From: a virus
Lineage: Duplodnaviria; Heunggongvirae; Uroviricota; Caudoviricetes
IMG/VR virus record: IMGVR_UViG_2657244971_000003
Direction: 5' to 3' (one strand)
DNA: 13,046 nt
Both the position numbers and the translations under genes were made by a program. Each line of letters begins with the position of its first letter. The first letter of the stretch is position 1. The notes under the pieces were generated by a model. That model did not search any database. It had not been told where the DNA came from and was given only the letters and a program-made list of their open reading frames with translations. Below, piece after piece: positions 2,399 to 12,869 of the stretch.

Positions 2399-4357
2399 TT
2401 AATTTCTCAAAATAATATTACCAGTGGAGACAAACGAGAATATGAAGTTCCCGCGCGGCGTTCCGCCACCGGATGTATTTTGCTTCGGAAAAACCTGGAT
2501 GGAACCGAGCGCTGACATCTGAAATGTAAATGCCGGGGTATCATTTGTTATTACACTATCCTCAATAAACGAAATAACAGAAATGTTACCTATAGTCCCA
2601 GCCGACCTTTTGTATAACAGCTCATATATTGCACACTTTGTCTTGCTTGAGTTGTAAACTTGGCATGTGATTTTACCTGCACAGGATGACGCCGCATCGT
2701 TATCACTGTACGTCCCAACACCGACAACAGTTTTTGCAATACCTGACTCAACACTAACGGCTAACTCATTAGATGACTGAGACGATAAATTGTTATATCT
2801 GTCAGTTGTCAGCTTTTGAGCTGTTGAAACATTATCGTCGAGGAGCCTGGAGGCTACTGAATCGGCCTTAATATGCACCCCGCGAGACTGGCAACGCCCA
2901 AAAACTGCTGCACCGCCAGCGATAGAGACGCCTTTATGCGGAATTGAGGACAGGTCAACGCTACCGAAGTATGTCCTGTTTCCGCCATCACCACCAACCC
3001 TCTCGTCTATATTTCCAGGAACGACCCCTGCATATACCGCGCCTGAACCCACATTAATATCTAATATGTTACGGGTTGGTTTCTCTGCTGAAATAGAACC
3101 ATCTGCAATAGTTATGTTAGCGTAAATATCAGATGTACTCTCTATTCTCACTGCACTTGACGGTTGCTGCTGCCCACAGAATGCTATTTGATTAGATCCT
3201 GATATATTTAATGCAGCAGCCTGCCGTATAAATATCGCCTCTCTTCCACCTTCAAAATAATTGTTCGCTCCACTTATGTTTACCCACGCTGCTTTATCTA
3301 CATACAAATGATTTGAATGCGTTTTTGTGTTTCTGTCGGAATGCATTAAGTTATCTGAATAAATAAGACCATCAAGCTGCTCTGCTATAAACCCACCGTA
3401 CCGAGTAAACCAACCACGATTATTAGTGAATTTAAAATCATTATAGGCATACGCATGAGCATTATCGTGTTTCAGCTCAACTAATTTCCCGACATTAATG
3501 GCTGTCATGTTATCGATAGTGATAAGGCCTATTGCGTGAAATGGTGTTGTTGCGTCTGCAATGCCTTTGATTGCACAATCAACTCGAGTTGCTTTGATGT
3601 TAATGAAATCTATAAACCTTCCCTTTTTCAGCTTAAACCCGTAGTCACCACCAGGGGCAGTAGATGTAATCCCTATACCGTCAATGGTTTTAAGGGCCTC
3701 CCCCCTGCCGTCATTAATGATAAATGACAAATCTTGCAGCCAGCCGCCGCCAACAATATCACACAGTCTAGTCACCTCAATTGAAGCGCCCCCAAATTTC
3801 AACACCCCGCTAATGCCTAAGATAACCCCTTCATCTGAACACTTATGAACTGCATCAAGCAGCTTTTGAGGATCATTAATCACAGAAAATGAAAGCCCGA
3901 AATCTCTTGCGTCAATAACGGCTCTGTTTTCCAGGGAGTCTTTTAGAGTTTTCCCTCCGCCAACGCCAATTAATGAGCCATCTCCTTTCTTTAACTCATC
4001 ACGGAATCGTATTTCAAACTGGTCTGGATCATATTTCAATACATTCGGAAAATAGAACTGCTGCGCACCATATGCATCATAAACAGCCATAGAATGGCCT
4101 TGCACAGTTACGAATTTGGCAATCTGCCCGTTATATACCGGATATCCAGCAGCATTGATAACAATTGGCTGAGAAACAGGGACGTGAGATCCGTCTTCAT
4201 TCTCTACATAAACCTGAATCTGGTTTTCAGTATTTACCGGGTCCGTGTCAATTTTACCGATATAAATTTTGCCATTGGCTACGGCTTTAAAAGAACGCGC
4301 CATAGTGAAGATTTGCGAAGGCATCGATATAATCACATTGGCTGTAATGTCTGTCAT
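2399..4357 (-). CDS. Podovirus tailspike protein: P22-gp9-like N-terminal head-binding domain fused to a divergent receptor-binding domain, 652 aa
   Basis: N-terminal ~120 aa ([42 protein letters not shown]...[13 protein letters not shown]...NVLKYDPDQ) closely resembles the P22 tailspike head-binding domain as I recall it. The rest is Gly/Asn/Ser-rich, as expected for a beta-helix. GGAG lies about 10 nt upstream of the ATG at 4357. Receptor specificity cannot be called from sequence. Confidence 0.85.
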
Positions 4358-4414
4358 TTAATTTGCTCCAGATACAAGGAATCACCGAAGCATGGCTACG
4401 GTGAATTTTGGGCA

Positions 4415-4439
4415 TAAAAAAACCCAGCCGAAGCTGGGT
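4415..4439 (-). terminator. Rho-independent terminator downstream of ant (minus strand)
   Basis: On the minus strand: GC-rich hairpin CCCAGC-TTCG-GCTGGG (plus-strand 4423-4438) followed by a run of 7 T (complement of the A-run at 4416-4422). Confidence 0.55.
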
Positions 4440-4457
4440 CGTTGCGTTGGTTATCTG

Positions 4458-5381
4458 TCAGTAGTTATGTACTGAAGGAGGTAATTCTTTATTCTTAAGT
4501 CTCATCCATGCGGAAAGATTCGTTGGTCCGTCTGGCTCATTAATATCAACATCTCGTGTGTGATTGATTAAAACGTCTCTCGCCATTCCGATAACATACG
4601 AGAACTCATGACCGTAGTCGTAGCATCTGCCTGAATAGTTCGATTGAATTTGTTTTAGCGCCGGATACAGTTCGCGGAATAATGCCTGTGAGCGGTTGGC
4701 ATAATCCCATAACCATACAAGGCTGTTTGCTTCTTTTGCAGAAAGCTCGTTTGCTTTCTTCTCTTGTTTGCCGATTAACTCGCCTTCAAGCGGAACGCGA
4801 GCTGCAAGTGACAGAGCTTCGGTAAACTGCTCATCGCTGATTTCTTTGTATGAACACCCAAAATGAGATTTCAGTGACGACCACATGGTAATCATTGCCT
4901 TCGCCTGTTTTTCTTTTGGCAGAGACTGACCGCGACTCATGACGAGTTGTTTAATGGCTTCCTGCTGTTCAGTGGTGATTTTACCCGGCAACGCCTTTTT
5001 AGCTTTGCGTGGGTTAACTACATGGCCTTTAGTCCAGTAGTCGTATAGCACATCGTCACACTCTTCTTGATACTGGATTACATTGTCGCGGATTTCAGGG
5101 CGGACTTTGTTAGGGCTGATGGTTTGCAACCAGCCATTCAGTTTACGTAAAGCAAGGCAAATCATGGTCTGCACACCGCCAACTGAAGGTATTGCGATTT
5201 CCACAATTCCTTTAGCAAATCTTTGTTTTAACTTTGTAAACTGTGAAGCCCAATCCATACCCATTCCCTCAACGATAGGTTTCATTGGGGTGTACGGTTC
5301 GCCGTTGTGATTGACAACATAAAGCTCTGCGCCGTGGAATGGCACGTTGATAGTAGATACTGCTGTTGCTATACTTTTCAT
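4458..5381 (-). CDS. ant: Phage antirepressor (Ant-like), 307 aa
   Basis: N-terminus [17 protein letters not shown]...[27 protein letters not shown] resembles antirepressor N-terminal domains as I recall them. It lies between an arc-like gene and the tailspike, the P22 immI order. AGGAAT lies about 8 nt upstream of the ATG at 5381. Confidence 0.8.
5347..5375 (+). promoter_or_regulatory. Candidate promoter for a sar-like antisense RNA, inside the first codons of ant on the opposite strand
   Basis: TTGATA (5347-5352), 17-bp spacer, TATACT (5370-5375). The predicted start near 5382 is immediately antisense to the ant start codon (5379-5381). Confidence 0.4.
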
Positions 5382-5456
5382 GTCGTTAATTCCTATGCGT
5401 GGTTTTACGATACCGAAGCCCTGACTGTTCCAGCAGTTGGGGCTTCAACTTTTTTG
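5382..5456 (+). ncRNA. Putative sar-like small antisense RNA (~75 nt) complementary to the ant ribosome-binding region
   Basis: Runs from the predicted start (~5382) across the complement of the ant Shine-Dalgarno and ends at a plus-strand terminator: extended imperfect hairpin GAAGCCCTGACTG / CAGTTGGGGCTTC (5415-5446) followed by TTTTTT (5450-5455). P22 has a short Sar antisense RNA at the analogous position. Predicted from motifs only. Confidence 0.4.
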
Positions 5457-5687
5457 TCCAGCTTGTCCGAGTAAAAATCCAGATACATGCTCTACTGACT
5501 GGTCAACCTCAATTTTTCTGCCAGAAGTTAATGTAATAAGCGCACAATCGTCACCTGTGCCCTCTACCAACTCAATGTTTTGGCGTCTTATGGTGTATGT
5601 CGTTTTGTTTTTTTCGAATCTAATCCGCCACCAATCACTTGTCCTTCTGCTTTCAAACTTTGTTTTAGTTAGGGTTATAAAGCTCAT
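5445..5687 (-). CDS. Hypothetical 80-aa protein inserted between arc and ant, translationally coupled to arc
   Basis: Its ATG (5685-5687) overlaps the arc-like stop TGA (5684-5686) as ATGA. No recognisable motif. Product MSFITLTKTKFESRRTSDWWRIRFEKNK... is basic at the N-terminus and acidic in the middle. Confidence 0.5.
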   Translation of the reverse strand: MSFITLTKTKFESRRTSDWWRIRFEKNKTTYTIRRQNIELVEGTGDDCALITLTSGRKIEVDQSVEHVSGFLLGQAGQKS

Positions 5688-5824
5688 ACCGTTATCCCCT
5701 CTCTCTTCAGGCTATCCATCACCCGTTTAATTACTTCTGCGCTAAATGAGCGACACTCTTCCTTTGCTTTCTCTTCAAGGATTTTTTCTAACTTCTCTGG
5801 CATACGCAGTGTTTTTACCTTCAT
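5684..5824 (-). CDS. arc: Arc-like ribbon-helix-helix repressor, 46 aa
   Basis: Hand-translated (below the 60-aa floor of the ORF track): MKVKTLRMPEKLEKILEEKAKEECRSFSAEVIKRVMDSLKREGITV. C-terminal half resembles the P22 Arc C-terminus (...QRVMESFKKEGRIGA). GGAGAA lies about 6 nt upstream of the ATG. It is divergent from a Mnt-like gene. Confidence 0.7.
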   Translation of the reverse strand: MKVKTLRMPEKLEKILEEKAKEECRSFSAEVIKRVMDSLKREGITV

Positions 5825-5929
5825 TGCATTCTCCGTTGTATGTGGTACGCATACATAGTATTTAGGTACGCATTGATAGTCAATAGATACCTACATATCC
5901 TGTGGTAAAAAATTATTCAGGATGTGCCG
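5825..5929. promoter_or_regulatory. Divergent immI-like promoter/operator region between arc and mnt
   Basis: A 105-bp gap between divergent RHH repressor genes. 9-bp direct repeats GGTACGCAT at 5844-5852 and 5865-5873 are spaced 21 bp apart. An imperfect inverted repeat TGTATG...CATACA lies around 5838-5856. TTGATA is at 5873-5878. Confidence 0.5.
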
Positions 5930-6181
5930 ATGTCTGATCGTAAGTACAAAAACCCTCAAGTGAATCTGAGGCTTCCTGTAGAGATAAAGGAACGTCTTAT
6001 TGAACTGGCTGAGGCTAATTCTCGTTCATTAAATGCTGAGATGGTCGCGGCACTTGAAGCGTGGACAGAAAAAAATAAACACATTCAAGCACTAGACCTT
6101 GCAACTATAGCATCACGATTGATAGATCTTGAACACGATGTTGAGACACTGAAAACCATGTATGGTAAGGATGCAAAATGA
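5930..6181 (+). CDS. mnt: Mnt-like ribbon-helix-helix repressor, 83 aa from the ATG
   Basis: The tracked ORF begins at GTG 5924, but the ATG at 5930 has AGGA 8 nt upstream. N-terminus (NLRLPVEIKERLIELAEANSRSLNAEMVAALEAW) follows the Arc/Mnt pattern. Orientation is divergent from arc-ant, as in P22 immI. Confidence 0.7.
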   Translation: MSDRKYKNPQVNLRLPVEIKERLIELAEANSRSLNAEMVAALEAWTEKNKHIQALDLATIASRLIDLEHDVETLKTMYGKDAK

Positions 6182-6387
6182 ATAAAAAACAGTTTATTAA
6201 GTCAAAAACGTCAAGCAAGGAAGAGCTAGAGAAAGAGCTAAACTCCCTGAAATATGCTCTGTGTCTGGTTTACTCAAGACTGCCAATGGAAGATAAAAAC
6301 GCCATTTACAATGAAATGATTAGCAGCCTTGATTTTAACGATAGAGACCTAGCATCCCACCTCAACAGCTTCCGCGTCCCTGAGTAA
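6178..6387 (+). CDS. Hypothetical 69-aa protein translationally coupled to mnt
   Basis: Its ATG (6178-6180) overlaps the mnt stop TGA (6179-6181) as ATGA. Lys/Glu-rich N-terminus. No recognisable motif. Confidence 0.5.
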   Translation: MNKKQFIKSKTSSKEELEKELNSLKYALCLVYSRLPMEDKNAIYNEMISSLDFNDRDLASHLNSFRVPE

Positions 6388-6547
6388 TTCTGTTGCGGAT
6401 TTGCTTCTTGCGGTGGTTTAGGCTGGAGAGCTTGGCTTCTGCTTCTGATATTTGCGCATCTAGATCTTTAAGCTCAAGATCTGAAAGTCGCTGGTCAAGC
6501 AGGGTTTGGTTCAACTCAATGTTGTTCAGGCGTTCTTCTATGGTCAT
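6362..6547 (-). CDS. Hypothetical small coiled-coil protein, 61 aa from ATG 6547 (tracked ORF extends to 6640)
   Basis: MTIEERLNNIELNQTLLDQRLSDLELKDLDAQISEAEAKL has a heptad-like Leu/Ile pattern. AGGA lies about 9 nt upstream of the ATG at 6545-6547. Its 3' end overlaps the preceding plus-strand ORF by 26 nt. It could be a chance ORF. Confidence 0.35.
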   Translation of the reverse strand: MTIEERLNNIELNQTLLDQRLSDLELKDLDAQISEAEAKLSSLNHRKKQIRNRITQGRGSC

Positions 6548-6814: not shown

Positions 6815-7042
6815 GTGAAGCGATGGTTCCTCATAATTACTGTTTTCGCGATCATTTACACTATTTTCCCTGCATTAAAAGCACCAATGCAAATAATTTC
6901 ACTAGCAATAATTTCGATTGGTGCTTTCATTGCAGTAGCCGTACTTGTGTTTAAGGTTTTAAAGTTTTTAGTTTGGCTATCAAAAGATGATGGATGCAAA
7001 GTTCATCAAGAAAAAGAAGGCAAAATAACCAAAGTTGACTAA
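6815..7042 (+). CDS. Hypothetical small inner-membrane protein with two predicted transmembrane helices, 75 aa from GTG 6815
   Basis: AAGGAGG (6803-6809) lies 5 nt upstream of the in-frame GTG at 6815; the tracked ORF begins at ATG 6791 without an RBS. Two hydrophobic segments (WFLIITVFAIIYTIF and IISLAIISIGAFIAVAVLVF). Same strand as mnt, the position where P22-like phages carry exclusion genes. Confidence 0.5.
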   Translation: MKRWFLIITVFAIIYTIFPALKAPMQIISLAIISIGAFIAVAVLVFKVLKFLVWLSKDDGCKVHQEKEGKITKVD

Positions 7043-8718
7043 CTGTCACTAGCGAGCCATGTAATAATCCCCGTGCGGGCAATGGTTTTTGCTTCATCTG
7101 TTGATAAGGTTTTCTCCCATCTCTTAAATGCCCCAGATTGCATCAGTTTCCTTTCTATTGCGCGTCTCACTTCTGCTCTGTCTACTGGTGCGTTTTGCAG
7201 GCGAAATAGCATTGATTTAAACTCAGGAGAAGATAGCAGAGCATCAGCAGCCTTTATCCTGCTTGTTTTCCCTGACATCAATGCAGACGTTATCACCCCT
7301 GTTGCACCTACACCAGGGAGACCAGATAAGCTTGTAATACCTTCCGCCGCAGCAGCTTTTGAGGCTATTCCATAAATTTTTGCGAGACTACCCTTTTCTT
7401 TCAGAAAGTTATTAACTTGCTGATCCACAAGACTACTAGCATACTGCTTACCAGTATTGAGTCTATTCATAGCCTTAGCTGCTTGATAAATCGTATCAAG
7501 GCGCTTTGATGCATCTGTGCCAATAGCATCACGGAGAGCCTTCATATTGGCCCCATTGCGTGACATTCCGTTATACCATTTTACAAATCCATCAACTCCT
7601 AATTGCTGACCAGGTGATTTGGCATAGCTGGTAAATGCTTTATTCATTGAGGTGAGCGCAACTTCCTGCCGCATATCCTTTGGAATCGACTTCATTAATT
7701 GCCTAAAGTCGCCACCGTTTCCTTTTGCCATATTAACAACAGCACTTTCAACTTTTAGAATTGCTGATTGCTGAAGTTTTCTACCCAAGACGGTTACAGC
7801 ATCATCTTCAATGGATTTTCGTTTTTTTACCAACTCCTTACCAAGCGTCCATAATTCCCCTGCGCCATATTTTTCTGCGACAGCCTGTTGGTCATCTGTT
7901 ATGGCTGCATATAACTTTTTAAGAACACCTGTTTCTTCATCCTTGAATGGACCAGAGCCTTTGCCAATAGCTTGTCCAACCTGCTTTCTAGCGAGATCTA
8001 AACGCCCATACGTTGGCAAGGTGTTTGGATCAAGTCGGTTCAATGTCCGCTTCATTATTGGAGATAATTCATCAATTCCACCTATGTCATCAGCAAAATC
8101 CTCTAAAAAATTCAATGTATTAGTTGCCTCAATCCGGTCTCTTACAGGAACCTTTTCGGCAATTTTGTTGTAGATGTTATCTGACTGATTTTGTAATGAT
8201 GAAATGGTTTTATCAAAATTATCTGCAAGCCTGTCAGAAACCAGTTGCTTATCAAGGCTTCCCCCAAATGAAGTTATCATTTCATCAGCTTTTCTTCCTA
8301 ATTCAGTAATAAAACGCTTATGCGCCTCACTAATCTCTGTTCCAGGGAGACTTGCCACTGCATTATCAAGAGCCCTGACAGCAGGATTATTAGAGATCAT
8401 GCCTGGAGTGGCATAATTTTCCAGTTCTAGCTCACGAATAGCATTTATCGCGTTAAAATCAGGATTAACTTCATCGGCGAAATCTTGAATAGCTCGTTGC
8501 CCGCCGATAAATTTATTGTCCATTGCGCCAGTAGCTTTCTTTAACGTTGCTTTAGATGATTTACTACCCATCCCTACGGATGAGCGATAAATATCTCCGG
8601 CACTATTTTTAATTTTTCCTGCAATCTTCCCAAGCGCTGGACCAACAATCTCGGCTATCCGGTAACTCCGGATGGTTGGATAAGCTGTAGTGAGCAGATG
8701 CCTTCCGCAGGGGAACAA
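7039..8718 (-). CDS. P22 gp16-family DNA ejection/injection protein, probably 5'-truncated (possible pseudogene)
   Basis: Long, alpha-helix-rich, Ala/Lys-rich product. It sits upstream of the sieA/mnt-like region, where gene 16 lies in P22. The frame is open to 8718, where the tracked ORF begins at a TTG with no RBS; the first in-frame ATG (8569-8571) has only a weak RBS. Identity is from synteny and composition, not motif recognition. Confidence 0.55.
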   Translation of the reverse strand: MFPCGRHLLTTAYPTIRSYRIAEIVGPALGKIAGKIKNSAGDIYRSSVGMGSKSSKATLKKATGAMDNKFIGGQRAIQDFADEVNPDFNAINAIRELELENYATPGMISNNPAVRALDNAVASLPGTEISEAHKRFITELGRKADEMITSFGGSLDKQLVSDRLADNFDKTISSLQNQSDNIYNKIAEKVPVRDRIEATNTLNFLEDFADDIGGIDELSPIMKRTLNRLDPNTLPTYGRLDLARKQVGQAIGKGSGPFKDEETGVLKKLYAAITDDQQAVAEKYGAGELWTLGKELVKKRKSIEDDAVTVLGRKLQQSAILKVESAVVNMAKGNGGDFRQLMKSIPKDMRQEVALTSMNKAFTSYAKSPGQQLGVDGFVKWYNGMSRNGANMKALRDAIGTDASKRLDTIYQAAKAMNRLNTGKQYASSLVDQQVNNFLKEKGSLAKIYGIASKAAAAEGITSLSGLPGVGATGVITSALMSGKTSRIKAADALLSSPEFKSMLFRLQNAPVDRAEVRRAIERKLMQSGAFKRWEKTLSTDEAKTIARTGIITWLASDS

Positions 8719-9496: not shown

Positions 9497-9512
9497 TTGC
9501 AGGTTCGATTCC
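9497..9512 (+). repeat. 16-nt direct repeat of the argW T-arm (TTGCAGGTTCGATTCC), candidate att core or att relic
   Basis: Exact 16/16 identity with 1054-1069 inside argW; flanking bases differ. The downstream sequence does not complete a T-stem, so it is not a tRNA. Confidence 0.6.
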
Positions 9513-9531: not shown

Positions 9532-9732
9532 ATGCAACACGAACTACAGCCTGATTCACTGGTTGATTTGAAATTCATCATGGCCGATACTGGCTTCGGT
9601 AAAACCTTCATCTACGACCGGATTAAGTCCGGCGACCTGCCAAAAGCCAAAGTTATCCACGGGCGAGCAAGATGGTTATATCGTGACCATTGTGAATTCA
9701 AAAATAAGCTCTTAAGCCGCGCTAATGGGTAA
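9532..9732 (+). CDS. torI: Excisionase / recombination directionality factor (TorI-like), 66 aa
   Basis: MQHELQPDSLVDLKFIMADTGFGKTFIYDRIKSGDLPKAKVIHGRARWLYRDHCEFKNKLLSRANG matches my recollection of E. coli TorI, the KplE1 excisionase. GGAGA lies about 8 nt upstream. The symbol is recalled, not searched. Confidence 0.7.
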   Translation: MQHELQPDSLVDLKFIMADTGFGKTFIYDRIKSGDLPKAKVIHGRARWLYRDHCEFKNKLLSRANG

Positions 9733-9747: not shown

Positions 9748-9805
9748 ATTTTTCACATCTAAAAAACACCATTCCAATCAATCCCCTGCTGCTTCAAGTA
9801 GATGT

Positions 9806-9818
9806 CTGCAGGGGACAC
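9806..9818 (+). repeat. 13-nt direct repeat of the argW 3' end (CTGCAGGGGACAC), candidate attR core of element A and relic attL of element B
   Basis: Exact 13/13 identity with 1069-1081. An 8-bp inverted partner TCCCCTGC sits at 9782-9789. Together with the 16-nt repeat it reconstitutes the argW 3' half (1054-1081), interrupted by about 293 bp that carry torI. Confidence 0.55.
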
Positions 9819-9932: not shown

Positions 9933-9981
9933 GTGATGGTATAAGTGATGGTATTCCCCAGTTCGATATGCAGATACCATC
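9933..9981. promoter_or_regulatory. Repeat cluster upstream of the second integrase (candidate arm-type or operator sites)
   Basis: Tandem direct 10-mers GTGATGGTAT at 9933-9942 and 9945-9954, plus an inverted copy ATACCATC at 9974-9981. Confidence 0.4.
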
Positions 9982-10004
9982 AATTTACCAAAATGAGTAC
10001 AGAT

Positions 10005-11279
10005 ATGGCCATTAATGTGCTTTCCCCCAAACAGATAGAAAACGCCAAGCCGAAGACCAATGATTACAAACTTACCGATGGAGGGAGTTTGTATCTACTG
10101 GTACGAAAGACTGGTGGAAAATACTGGCGTATGAATTATCGTTTTGATGGAAAACAAGTGACATTGGCATTAGGGGTCTACCCAGATGTCTCACTTGCAA
10201 CAGCGCGGAAACGGCGTGATGAAGCCAGGCAACTACTAGCCGATGGTCGTGATCCTCGCGAAGCAAAGAAACCCAAAAAGGAAGACCCAATTTCCCCCAC
10301 GTTCGAGAGTGTTGCCAGAGAGTGGCATAGTGGAACGATGGGGCATCCTGAGTGGAAAGAGATCACCCGTAAAAAAATTCTCCGAGAAATGGAAAACCAC
10401 CTCTTTCCTGCCATCGGTTCAAAGCCTATCGATACGCTCAAAACCCGTGACTTGATGCCGATGCTGGTTGAGATGACTGAGAAAGGAATTGGTGCCACAA
10501 CGAGCCGTGTAAAAACCACTATGACGAGCATCTTCCGTTATGCCGTGCAACGTGGAATTGTCGATTACAACCCTGCCCACGATCTAAAAGGTGCAATTAC
10601 GGCCCCCAAAGTACGACATCGCCCCGCACTACCTCTCGAACGTTTACCTGAACTGTTAGCGAAAACGAGAAGTTACACGGGAAGACCATTGACTCGCCTA
10701 GCAGTTCTCTTTTCCCTGCACACTTTTGTGCGATCCAGCGAACTACGACATGCCAGATGGGAGGAGATCGACATTGAAAATGGGCTATGGACGATACCAG
10801 GACAACGTGAAGAGATCGCAGGGGTTAAATTCTCAGATCGGGGTGCAAAGATGGGGGCTGCTCATTATGTCCCGCTATCTAGTCAGGCTATCGGGGTACT
10901 GGAGGATATAAGGAAAATCAGTGGTGAATATCTGCTGGTTTTTCCCGGTGACAGCAACCCATATAAACCGATGAGCGAAAACACAGTTAATAAAGCACTG
11001 CGAACGATGGGTTACGACACTCAAACTGATGTTTGCTTGCATGGGTTCAGGGCGATGGCCTGCTCTGCACTGACCGAATCAGGACTCTGGTCACGCGATG
11101 CAGTTGAACGGCAGATGAGTCACCAAGAAAGAAACGAAGTGCGGGCAGCATATGTGCATCTTGCGCAGCACATGCAGGAACGCCGCAGAATGATGCAATG
11201 GTGGTCTAATTATCTGGAACTAAATAAGGACGAATTCCATGCTCCTTATGACTTATCAGGTATTAACATTATCAATTAA
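10005..11279 (+). CDS. P4-family tyrosine integrase, about 424 aa
   Basis: N-terminus MAINVLSPKQIENAKPKTNDYKLTDGGSLYLLVRKTGGKYWRMNYRFDGKQ is the P4-integrase arm-binding domain pattern. Catalytic region has HGFRAMACS and RAAYVH. The start could instead be ATG 9993; the tracked ORF begins at GTG 9945 inside the repeat cluster. Confidence 0.8.
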   Translation: MAINVLSPKQIENAKPKTNDYKLTDGGSLYLLVRKTGGKYWRMNYRFDGKQVTLALGVYPDVSLATARKRRDEARQLLADGRDPREAKKPKKEDPISPTFESVAREWHSGTMGHPEWKEITRKKILREMENHLFPAIGSKPIDTLKTRDLMPMLVEMTEKGIGATTSRVKTTMTSIFRYAVQRGIVDYNPAHDLKGAITAPKVRHRPALPLERLPELLAKTRSYTGRPLTRLAVLFSLHTFVRSSELRHARWEEIDIENGLWTIPGQREEIAGVKFSDRGAKMGAAHYVPLSSQAIGVLEDIRKISGEYLLVFPGDSNPYKPMSENTVNKALRTMGYDTQTDVCLHGFRAMACSALTESGLWSRDAVERQMSHQERNEVRAAYVHLAQHMQERRRMMQWWSNYLELNKDEFHAPYDLSGINIIN

Positions 11280-11292
11280 ATACTCTTATAAT
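11263..11292 (+). promoter_or_regulatory. Candidate sigma70 promoter for the 293-aa orphan gene
   Basis: TTAACA (11263-11268), 18-bp spacer, perfect TATAAT (11287-11292). AGAGG RBS at 11300-11304. Confidence 0.45.
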
Positions 11293-11309
11293 TTAAAACA
11301 GAGGTCATA

Positions 11310-12191
11310 ATGCAGCATTCAACAGAGAATGAAACTATATTCTTAGGAAATCTATGGATTGACAAAAAAATACCACCATTAGAATATTGTTCATTTGAAC
11401 GCGCTTCAAGACTATTAGAATGCGAGATTGATGATTTATTACATCTATACGAAATAGGCGCTTTTAATATCGCATTCAAGGCGAATGGACTTGCAGTTAG
11501 ATTTAATGTTAATTTCCTCAATAAAAATCAGAAAATGGAAATTGACTTAATTCATCCCGTATTAACTAATCAATCACTAGAGATGGAATTTTCAACAATA
11601 TGGTATGACCTTAAAGATGATTCCTTTGAACATTTTGAAAATGGGCTTCAAATTATAGGATTTGCCTGTGGTATTTGGTACGCCGATGATATGATAAGTG
11701 ACATAAAAAATGGATTAGCTATAGATCCAGATTATGAATTCAGGCTTAAACCGGTAAAAATACGAGATAATGTTTTGATGGCAACGGCCTCATATGAAGG
11801 AAATAAGGTCATTGAGATTCCATTTGAAGATCTTCTTATCATGCGAAGAGATTTAGAGTTAATATGGAAATCAGTAAAAACTGGAATTCCTATGCCAAGT
11901 TTACTTACGAAAAGAATTTCATCTGAACCTAAAATCCCCAAGCGATTAAATAACACTGCTGAGCATCATGCAAAAAATAGGGAGGGGTTATTAAATGCAG
12001 CCATATATATATTAGCAAAATACCCAAGCGAATGTCGTGGTGAAAGAAAAGAGATAAGTCCTGAAAAGTGGACTAACGCCATAATTAAACATTTAGGAGA
12101 GCTACCTCCAATATTTATCACTAATGAACAAGAAATCTTAAGAAAATTACGATTAGCGGTTAATCATGCGGGATTAAAACAAAAGGGGTAG
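11310..12191 (+). CDS. Hypothetical 293-aa protein, strongly AT-rich, no recognisable domain; candidate accessory cargo
   Basis: Long ORF with a good RBS and its own promoter. It is visibly more AT-rich than the flanking integrase and alpA-like genes (judged by eye, not computed). I found no Walker A, clear nuclease or HTH signature by eye. Confidence 0.65.
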   Translation: MQHSTENETIFLGNLWIDKKIPPLEYCSFERASRLLECEIDDLLHLYEIGAFNIAFKANGLAVRFNVNFLNKNQKMEIDLIHPVLTNQSLEMEFSTIWYDLKDDSFEHFENGLQIIGFACGIWYADDMISDIKNGLAIDPDYEFRLKPVKIRDNVLMATASYEGNKVIEIPFEDLLIMRRDLELIWKSVKTGIPMPSLLTKRISSEPKIPKRLNNTAEHHAKNREGLLNAAIYILAKYPSECRGERKEISPEKWTNAIIKHLGELPPIFITNEQEILRKLRLAVNHAGLKQKG

Positions 12192-12293
12192 ACTGAAACA
12201 ATCTACAGGTAGAGTTGATTACACTACCTTCACAGCATTTTGATATCCCCATAGTATCTGCCGTGTTCATTACATAATACGGCAGGTAATTTC

Positions 12294-12509
12294 ATGACAT
12301 TAAAAACTTATCCTATCACTGGACATGCCCGCCCACGAGCTACTGCTGACTTTTTGCAAATAAGTACGGTTACTCTCTGGCGCTGGGAAAAGAACAATCC
12401 TGAATTTCCCAAATCTATACGCATTTCAAAACGGGTATCTGTTTACGATGCACAAGAAATTAGGCAGTGGGTTAAAGCTCAATCAGCAGGATTGGAGGAA
12501 GTAGTGTAA
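12294..12509 (+). CDS. AlpA-family phage regulatory protein / excisionase-like HTH protein, 71 aa
   Basis: ISTVTLWRWEKNNPEFPKSIRISKRVSVYDAQEIRQWV fits the AlpA/Xis-like winged-helix pattern. A hairpin CTGCCGT...ACGGCAG (12258-12285) lies just upstream. Confidence 0.65.
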   Translation: MTLKTYPITGHARPRATADFLQISTVTLWRWEKNNPEFPKSIRISKRVSVYDAQEIRQWVKAQSAGLEEVV

Positions 12510-12558
12510 TGACAATATTAACAAAGCTGGGGAGAAAAAAGCCTCCCCAACGTATTAA

Positions 12559-12753
12559 TCAATTCTTTGGTTCTAAACCTCGGCTTTGTAACTCTTTGCG
12601 TAGAATGCGCTTGATCCAAGCCGCTAGCGATTCATCGCCATCCTGCTGTTGTGCTTGTTCCATCAGTTCACGCAGTTCAGGGTCAAGTCGGAACTGGAAT
12701 GGCGGATTCCCACGTCTTTCATTTTTGTGTGTTGACACGTCAATTACACCCAT
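12559..12753 (-). CDS. Hypothetical small DNA-binding protein, possibly ribbon-helix-helix, 64 aa
   Basis: FQFRLDPELRELMEQA...SLAAWIKRILRKEL has a strand-helix-helix-like pattern. No clear RBS. It is divergent from the Icd-like ORF across an inverted-repeat region. Confidence 0.4.
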   Translation of the reverse strand: MGVIDVSTHKNERRGNPPFQFRLDPELRELMEQAQQQDGDESLAAWIKRILRKELQSRGLEPKN

Positions 12754-12766
12754 TGTAATGTATTTA

Positions 12767-12787
12767 TGTGTAATGACACATTACACA
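12767..12787. promoter_or_regulatory. Inverted repeat TGTGTAATG-ACA-CATTACACA, candidate operator
   Basis: 9-bp arms are perfect reverse complements with a 3-bp spacer. Related ATTACA/TGTAAT motifs occur at about 12741-12760, 12215-12222 and 12268-12275. Confidence 0.4.
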
Positions 12788-12869
12788 CAGAAAAACAAAA
12801 TAGCAACGCCCCGGAGTGTTTGCAGCAGCACCGAGGCGTCTGACCAGCACGTTATATGAGGTAACGAAG

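Follow-up and report, generated by a model that had tools for sequence, protein, structure and literature searches.

The sar RNA of phage P22, a textbook example of a cis-antisense RNA from 1987 onwards, is represented by a curated Rfam family. The P22 record BK000583 (GenBank TPA) annotates Psar (29 bp), the sar RNA, which starts at the base beside the ant ATG, and the sar terminator; phage epsilon34 is annotated in the same way. According to passages in three papers, P22 sar is made, pairs with the ant mRNA and blocks Ant translation (PMC13397905; PMC2629481; PMC5415839), and one of them states that sar represses Ant through pairing with its mRNA (PMC13397905). PMC2629481 cites Liao et al. 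1987, Wu et al. 1987 and Schaefer & McClure 1997 for P22 sar and gives the members of the immunity I (immI) region as mnt, arc, sar and ant.

Other RNAs of similar design are OOP of lambda and P22, directed against cII/c1, and sas of P22, which like sar are short convergent RNAs with their own promoter, an intrinsic terminator and one phage mRNA as target. OOP overlaps its target at the 3′ end and works by RNase III-dependent decay (as cited in a passage of PMC3134472), whereas sar covers the ribosome-binding site. OOP and sas have no sequence relationship to sar, and of these families Rfam matched only sar at the locus described here.

This locus lies in a window of 13,046 nucleotides, the whole stretch of viral DNA that we analyzed (IMG/VR record IMGVR_UViG_2657244971_000003), for which an initial annotation had proposed a sar-like antisense RNA opposite the ant start, as in P22. 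The segment 5347–5455 on the plus strand is very likely the sar gene of a CUS-3-type immI region. It displays every feature by which the sar family is recognized in sequence, and it is an ordinary sar copy, already known in kind and family.

Promoter, predicted transcript and hairpins of the sar element

The plus strand between 5340 and 5460 reads ...cgTTGATAgtagatactgctgtTGcTATACTtttcATGtcg... and contains the promoter that the initial annotation had placed opposite ant, TTGATA-17-TATACT. This Psar (5347–5375, plus strand) has its −35 box, TTGATA, at 5347–5352 and, after a 17-bp spacer, its −10 box, TATACT, at 5370–5375, and it lies inside ant codons 3–12 on the opposite strand. In addition to the claimed boxes, a TG at 5367–5368 creates an extended −10 element, TGcTATACT (5367–5375). 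A consensus scan of the 13-kb window scored Psar at 10 of 12 positions, a value shared by three sites including Psar and exceeded by one site at 11/12; among these four best sites only Psar has an extended −10. The motif TTGCTATACT is preserved in most sar alleles of other loci, the rest carrying TACACT or TAAGCT variants, and in the other loci compared the conserved −10 is always found at a fixed distance from the sar hairpin.

The triplet CAT at 5379–5381 is the ant start codon (minus strand), so a start 7 nt after the −10 falls on G5382, directly beside the ATG. Placed by homology, the predicted sar start is G5382 or T5383, adjoining the ant ATG as the initial annotation had expected. The predicted antisense RNA would thus occupy 5382–5455 on the plus strand, with its 3′ end within the U-tract at 5450–5455 and a length of ∼69–74 nt that depends on the end point within these six residues.

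When the window was scanned with all Rfam families, two matches exceeded their gathering scores: a tRNA and sar (RF00262). The sar match (5383–5450, plus strand) covers the full model (positions 1–68 of 68) with 81.2 bits, for a gathering score of 43 and an E value of 4e-16. The minimum free energy (MFE) fold of −28.4 kcal/mol (z −5.1) consists of two hairpins and agrees with the Rfam structure. Stem-loop I (5383–5410, plus strand), as given by the Rfam structure line and the MFE fold, shows compensated pairs on that line relative to the P22-type consensus. The UUCCU in its loop (5390–5394) is complementary to AGGAA, the Shine-Dalgarno sequence of ant, situated 8 nt 5′ of the ant ATG; the proposed complementarity to the Shine-Dalgarno therefore holds.

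Stem-loop II is the intrinsic terminator (5415–5455, plus strand). It has a 14-bp stem (5415–5428 paired with 5433–5446) closed by a UCCA loop; its arms, GAAGCCCTGACTGT-TCCA-GCAGTTGGGGCTTC at 5415–5446, are followed by AAC and then TTTTTT at 5450–5455. The strong hairpin with a run of six T that had been predicted is thus in place, but it begins 33 nt after the start rather than about 70 nt downstream, ∼69–74 nt being the size of the whole RNA. In a terminator scan it is the strongest terminator-like site of the window.

Two further readings of the hairpin were rejected. A permissive Rfam scan of 4300–6500 gave, beyond sar, only a sub-threshold match of ctRNA_pGA1 over the terminator (29.3 bits, below the gathering score of 45), which we set aside as a generic hairpin match. 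A role as terminator of ant-sense transcription was discarded because no T-run follows the hairpin on the minus strand. For the ant-sense leader, folding stability does not significantly exceed that of shuffled sequence (z −1.5).

A column-by-column alignment with P22 and epsilon34 bears out the proposed kinship. Common to all three are the −10, the ATG-adjacent start, a ACCGAAGCCCTGACTGTT...GCAGTTGGGGCTTCAACTTT block and the spacing. P22 sar belongs to the same size class, the family being typified by two stem-loops and a length of ∼68–69 nt; it is likewise antisense to the ant leader and ribosome-binding site, has the same two-hairpin shape (−29.5 kcal/mol, z −5.3), and its terminator has a 14-bp stem identical to that in the window. 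In contrast, stem I and the leader represent a different allele, with ∼81% identity to P22 over the whole sar region; five of the six stem-I pairs are changed and still paired. Moreover, the −35 box TTGATA is nearer to the consensus than the GTGTTA of P22, and the U-tract has six residues compared with three in P22. On these two grounds, this sar copy may be expressed and terminated at least as well as that of P22.

Could a promoter-like site and a terminator-like hairpin simply have come to lie next to each other by chance? Promoter-like sites are indeed unremarkable here, with 22 found and 27 expected from shuffled sequence, and since consensus matches are no commoner than in shuffled sequence, significance must come from elsewhere. 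Terminator-like sites number 22 compared with 11.8 expected. The Rfam E value of 4e-16, together with the fold z-score of −5.1, excludes chance for practical purposes; the element is moreover homologous to an annotated and experimentally characterized RNA gene and conserved in at least 120 viral contigs and ∼200–290 E. coli genomes.

The immI module in a prophage remnant at argW

The target of sar, ant (4458–5381, minus strand; Shine-Dalgarno AGGAA at 5390–5394), is intact and encodes a 307-aa antirepressor. This is a true P22-type Ant, 56% identical to that of P22 and with both Pfam domains, P22_AR_N (1.2e-44) and P22_AR_C (3.5e-29). Just downstream of its stop codon, a hairpin with a T-run (4421–4440, minus strand) is likely the ant terminator; P22 and epsilon34 have an annotated terminator at the equivalent place. 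In the related locus L005 of E. coli PSS-11 (ant at 4160–4987, minus strand), the PGAP start of ant is placed ∼95 nt further downstream than the sar/ATG arrangement would predict.

Upstream of ant in the same orientation lies ORF80 (5445–5687, minus strand), an 80-aa gene between arc and ant that we refer to as a cargo gene. ORF80 begins in an ATGA overlap with the arc stop, and its own stop codon (5445–5447) is inside the 3′ arm of the sar hairpin, so that the RNA overlaps its last three or four codons and ends, as anticipated, within the 3′ end of this ORF; the U-tract of sar comes from these codons (Q-K-S-stop). A 3′ overlap with the upstream gene is normal for the sar family: in P22, the arc stop codon and the sar 3′ end share two bases. 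ORF80 is a hypothetical protein in two E. coli genomes (PGAP) and falls into only two protein clusters in a database of 5.8 billion proteins. It had no match by tblastn against 50,697 phage records, no PHROG match and no NCBIfam match, and a similarity to FlbD stayed below the Pfam cut-off.

The first gene of the Pant operon encodes an Arc-like ribbon-helix-helix repressor of 46 aa (5684–5824, minus strand), which matches Pfam Arc with 2.9e-09 (37 bits, cut-off 20.4), is named “Arc family DNA-binding protein” by PGAP and is 38% identical to P22 Arc. Divergent from it is a mnt-like repressor gene (5924–6181, plus strand), listed from a GTG at 5924; its PGAP-type start is probably the ATG at 5930, giving 83 aa. 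This ORF also has a Pfam Arc domain (3.3e-10) and is annotated mnt in CUS-3 and “Arc family DNA-binding protein” in E. coli.

Between the two genes, divergent overlapping promoter-like sites with inverted repeats occupy 5855–5901: a Pant-like site (5883–5855, minus strand; TTGACT-17-TACTAT) and a Pmnt-like site (5873–5901, plus strand; TTGATA-17-TATCCT). A perfect short palindrome, TGTATG-N7-CATACA (5837–5855), is located at the predicted Pant start, and an 18-nt imperfect inverted repeat (5859–5876 and 5880–5897) spans both −35 regions. We regard these repeats (5837–5897) as candidate operators for Mnt and Arc; their sequences bear no relation to those of the P22 operators. The layout is that annotated for Pant and Pmnt in P22, with a sequence of the CUS-3 rather than the P22 type; because the Pant/Pmnt/operator region is not similar in sequence to that of P22, regulation may differ in detail.

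Taken together, the window shares mnt, an arc-like gene and ant with the immI region of P22: an ant with both domains, an Arc-type first gene and a divergent Mnt-type repressor. As in the P22-like late operon, the region is found between the tailspike gene and a gene 16 homologue, here truncated. Arc is, however, not immediately beside ant with sar filling the gap, since the 80-aa ORF intervenes. This extra ORF is the single departure from the canonical P22 immI and is common to many P22-like phages.

The flanking genes identify the surrounding element as an 8.7-kb remnant of a P22/CUS-3-like prophage at argW. Downstream of yfdC (1–933) and tRNA-Arg(CCU), which is argW (1009–1083), follow a P4-type integrase (1209–2393), corresponding to the gene annotated intS in E. 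coli, and a tailspike gene with a P22 head-binding domain (2399–4357, minus strand). On the far side of immI, a 559-aa ORF for a DNA-transfer (gp16-like) protein (7039–8718, minus strand) matches only positions 168–707 of the 707-position PHROG family, from which we infer that its N-terminus is truncated; it is short by ∼167 N-terminal residues, and this truncation marks the deletion end of the remnant. TorI (9532–9732) has the same sequence as the TorI of E. coli (100% identity). The 3′ end of argW recurs at 9497–9512 (16 nt, exact) and at 9801–9818 (18 nt, 89% identity), and a second P4-type integrase (444 aa) starts at 9945, followed by a 293-aa unknown ORF and an AlpA-like regulator (region 9945–12859). 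From the argW repeats and the second integrase, two integrative elements appear to be arranged in tandem at argW.

The proposal that sar is retained in a remnant is thus confirmed: between argW and the repeat of its 3′ end, intS, torI, the tailspike gene and a complete immI module are retained; genes for head, lysis, replication and immC are absent. E. coli B4103-1 has a comparable remnant whose immI is also of the ORF80 type; its predicted sar transcript is identical to that of the window, and 2 nt differ in the promoter region. The same immI is part of an apparently complete prophage in E. coli PSS-11. P22, in contrast to the window, does not carry its sar in a remnant.

A close phage relative is CUS-3, a phage of E. 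coli K1 (CP000711), which is 97.6% identical over 5330–5452. It has the sar allele of the window and also its 307-aa Ant, 46-aa Arc-like ORF and mnt; the prophage order of int, tailspike and ant at argW is likewise shared. It differs in being a complete phage, in its cargo, a 67-aa Cys-rich ORF between arc and terminator, and in its tail, TTTC compared with T6 in the window. In the CUS-3 record, sar and the Arc-like ORF are both unannotated and the interval between ant and mnt is labeled only “boundary sequence”; a passage of the 2008 comparative paper states that CUS-3 apparently lacks arc (PMC2629481). The six-frame listing of CUS-3 does contain the same 46-aa Arc-like ORF. The unannotated Arc-like ORF and sar of CUS-3, at 4246–4452 (minus strand) and 3983–4055 (plus strand), are nearly identical to those in the window.

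Alleles, cargo genes and recombination at the terminator hairpin

At least 80% of the 112-bp element is present in 204 of 5,426 complete E. coli genomes, and part of it in 292; this sar allele occurs in ∼4–5% of complete E. coli genomes. A search of viral contigs for the exact hairpin stem, with the loop positions free, yielded at least 120 loci. A sar feature at the match was found in none of the RefSeq or CUS-3 records inspected; under the match, those listed annotate protein-coding genes only.

The matches listed, together with the annotated loci, contain 30 distinct leader (stem-I) sequences. The window allele is the commonest single 5′ sequence among the matches listed (23 loci), and its sar sequence with promoter is 100% identical to the copy in the apparently complete prophage of PSS-11. 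Pairing in stem I was judged from per-sequence folds, the Rfam alignment and RNAalifold on ten alleles; in a MAFFT alignment of the stem-I alleles the 3′ strand was out of register, and this alignment was left out of pair counting. An equivalent 5′ hairpin is formed by 29 of the 30 listed variants, the thirtieth (L097) being a mis-trimmed segment, and RNAalifold on the ten alleles revealed three stem-I pairs with changes on both sides.

Among single representative genomes of each species, an exact-pattern scan detected the hairpin only in those of Pectobacterium brasiliense and Entomohabitans teleogrylli, which says little on host range because the element is strain-variable. These two loci, L126 and L127, lie outside Escherichia and Salmonella and combine the exact terminator stem with a very different stem I and leader.

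Where the terminator is abutted by the 80-aa cargo ORF in the window, arc takes this place in P22, and arc abuts the terminator in the same manner in roughly half of 113 classified loci among the matches listed. The remaining classified loci have one small ORF between arc and terminator, whose stop codon reaches 2 nt into the hairpin. Loci with such a cargo slot include the window (5445–5687, minus strand), L001 (CUS-3), L008, L030, L031, L046, L055, L066 and others, and among the matches listed the slot is filled by at least eight unrelated sequences of 57–89 aa. The ORF80 type is rare, with five listed loci: the window, two E. coli genome loci and two viral contigs. As a side observation, the cargo of L055 (60 aa, MNKEDGFKCSFCGKPQHEC...) is a free-standing ClpX C4 zinc finger (PF06689, 43 bits, cut-off 27), and a CxxC...CxxC layout resembling it is seen in the Cys-rich cargos of CUS-3 (67 aa), L030 (63 aa) and L046 (74 aa), which score below the PF06689 cut-off.

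The length of the T-run after the hairpin varies with the cargo. Among the loci listed, it comprises three T in 71, four in 22, five in 28 and six in 5 loci, the window being one of those with six. Moreover, five named leader types and a residual “other” class, 23 downstream tails and five loop variants combine freely in the loci listed, with 47 four-gamete-positive combinations. The many combinations of leader, loop and tail show that recombination occurs in or beside the hairpin. The invariance of the stem in this sample is partly by construction, since loci were chosen by exact stem match.

Such a pattern raises the question whether the hairpin matters mainly as DNA, i.e., as a homology “linker” or boundary for the swapping of ant alleles and arc-side cargo, with termination of an RNA being secondary. 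The free combination of leader types, tails and loop variants with the 47 four-gamete-positive combinations among the loci listed would fit this, as would the label “boundary sequence” chosen by the CUS-3 annotators and the identity of the stem between phages whose Ant proteins are only 56% identical. However, stem identity loses some of its weight through the selection of loci by exact stem, the hairpin is the experimentally annotated sar terminator of P22, and it is always found at a fixed distance from a conserved −10. A role as DNA is also compatible with sar function and not exclusive of it. We therefore regard a mainly DNA-level role as possible, if rather unlikely, and retain the reading of the hairpin as the terminator of a sar RNA.

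Both properties could also be linked. The last codons of the cargo supply the three to six U of the terminator, and the identity of the cargo would in this way tune sar termination and hence Ant repression. A remnant whose Psar is close to consensus and whose terminator ends in U6 would then provide immunity in trans, as an anti-antirepressor module directed against incoming phages that share the ant leader allele. The joint proposal, that the hairpin is a fixed recombination joint, that the cargo tunes sar termination and Ant repression, and that the remnant serves as a trans-acting immunity module, is speculative, and we consider it unlikely to hold as a whole.

Predicted regulation of ant by sar in a remnant

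By analogy with P22, the constitutive-looking sigma-70 promoter within the first ant codons would fire convergently to Pant, and the resulting RNA of ∼70 nt would end at the intrinsic terminator. Its complementarity to the intercistronic leader between ORF80 and ant, which includes the ant Shine-Dalgarno, is perfect. Pairing with the ant mRNA would occlude the ribosome-binding site and keep Ant synthesis low, and sar would work in this way beside Arc and Mnt, which would repress transcription from Pant. That the RNA is made, pairs and represses translation is thus what the P22 system leads us to expect of this copy, whose sequence, family membership, structure, complementarity and genomic context we describe directly.

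In the remnant, sar and Mnt would silence the remnant's own Ant. As the prophage has lost immC, the module may no longer serve to control its own prophage; sar, being diffusible, could also act on the ant mRNA of incoming phages with the same leader allele, and Mnt could likewise act on such phages in trans. Alternatively, the element could be a genuine sar that persists as a functionless fossil in a decaying prophage, its RNA no longer made or no longer of consequence. This would suit an 8.7-kb remnant with a truncated gp16-like gene and without immC, head, lysis and replication genes, and similar argW remnants are present in other E. coli. Within the module itself, however, no decay is visible, the frames of ant, the arc-like gene, mnt and ORF80 all being intact. 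Furthermore, sar and its promoter do not differ at a single position from the copy in an apparently complete prophage, and the promoter matches the consensus better than does the Psar of P22. A fossil is thus quite improbable, and we favor a sar gene of the CUS-3 type whose elements are all preserved.

Nearly identical copies of this sar are present in a sequenced phage and hundreds of genomes. Its value for annotation lies in the fact that sar is unlisted in the records inspected although it occurs in ∼4–5% of complete E. coli genomes. Beyond this, the terminator as a mosaic joint beside a cargo slot would provide a small, testable handle on the diversification of immI.
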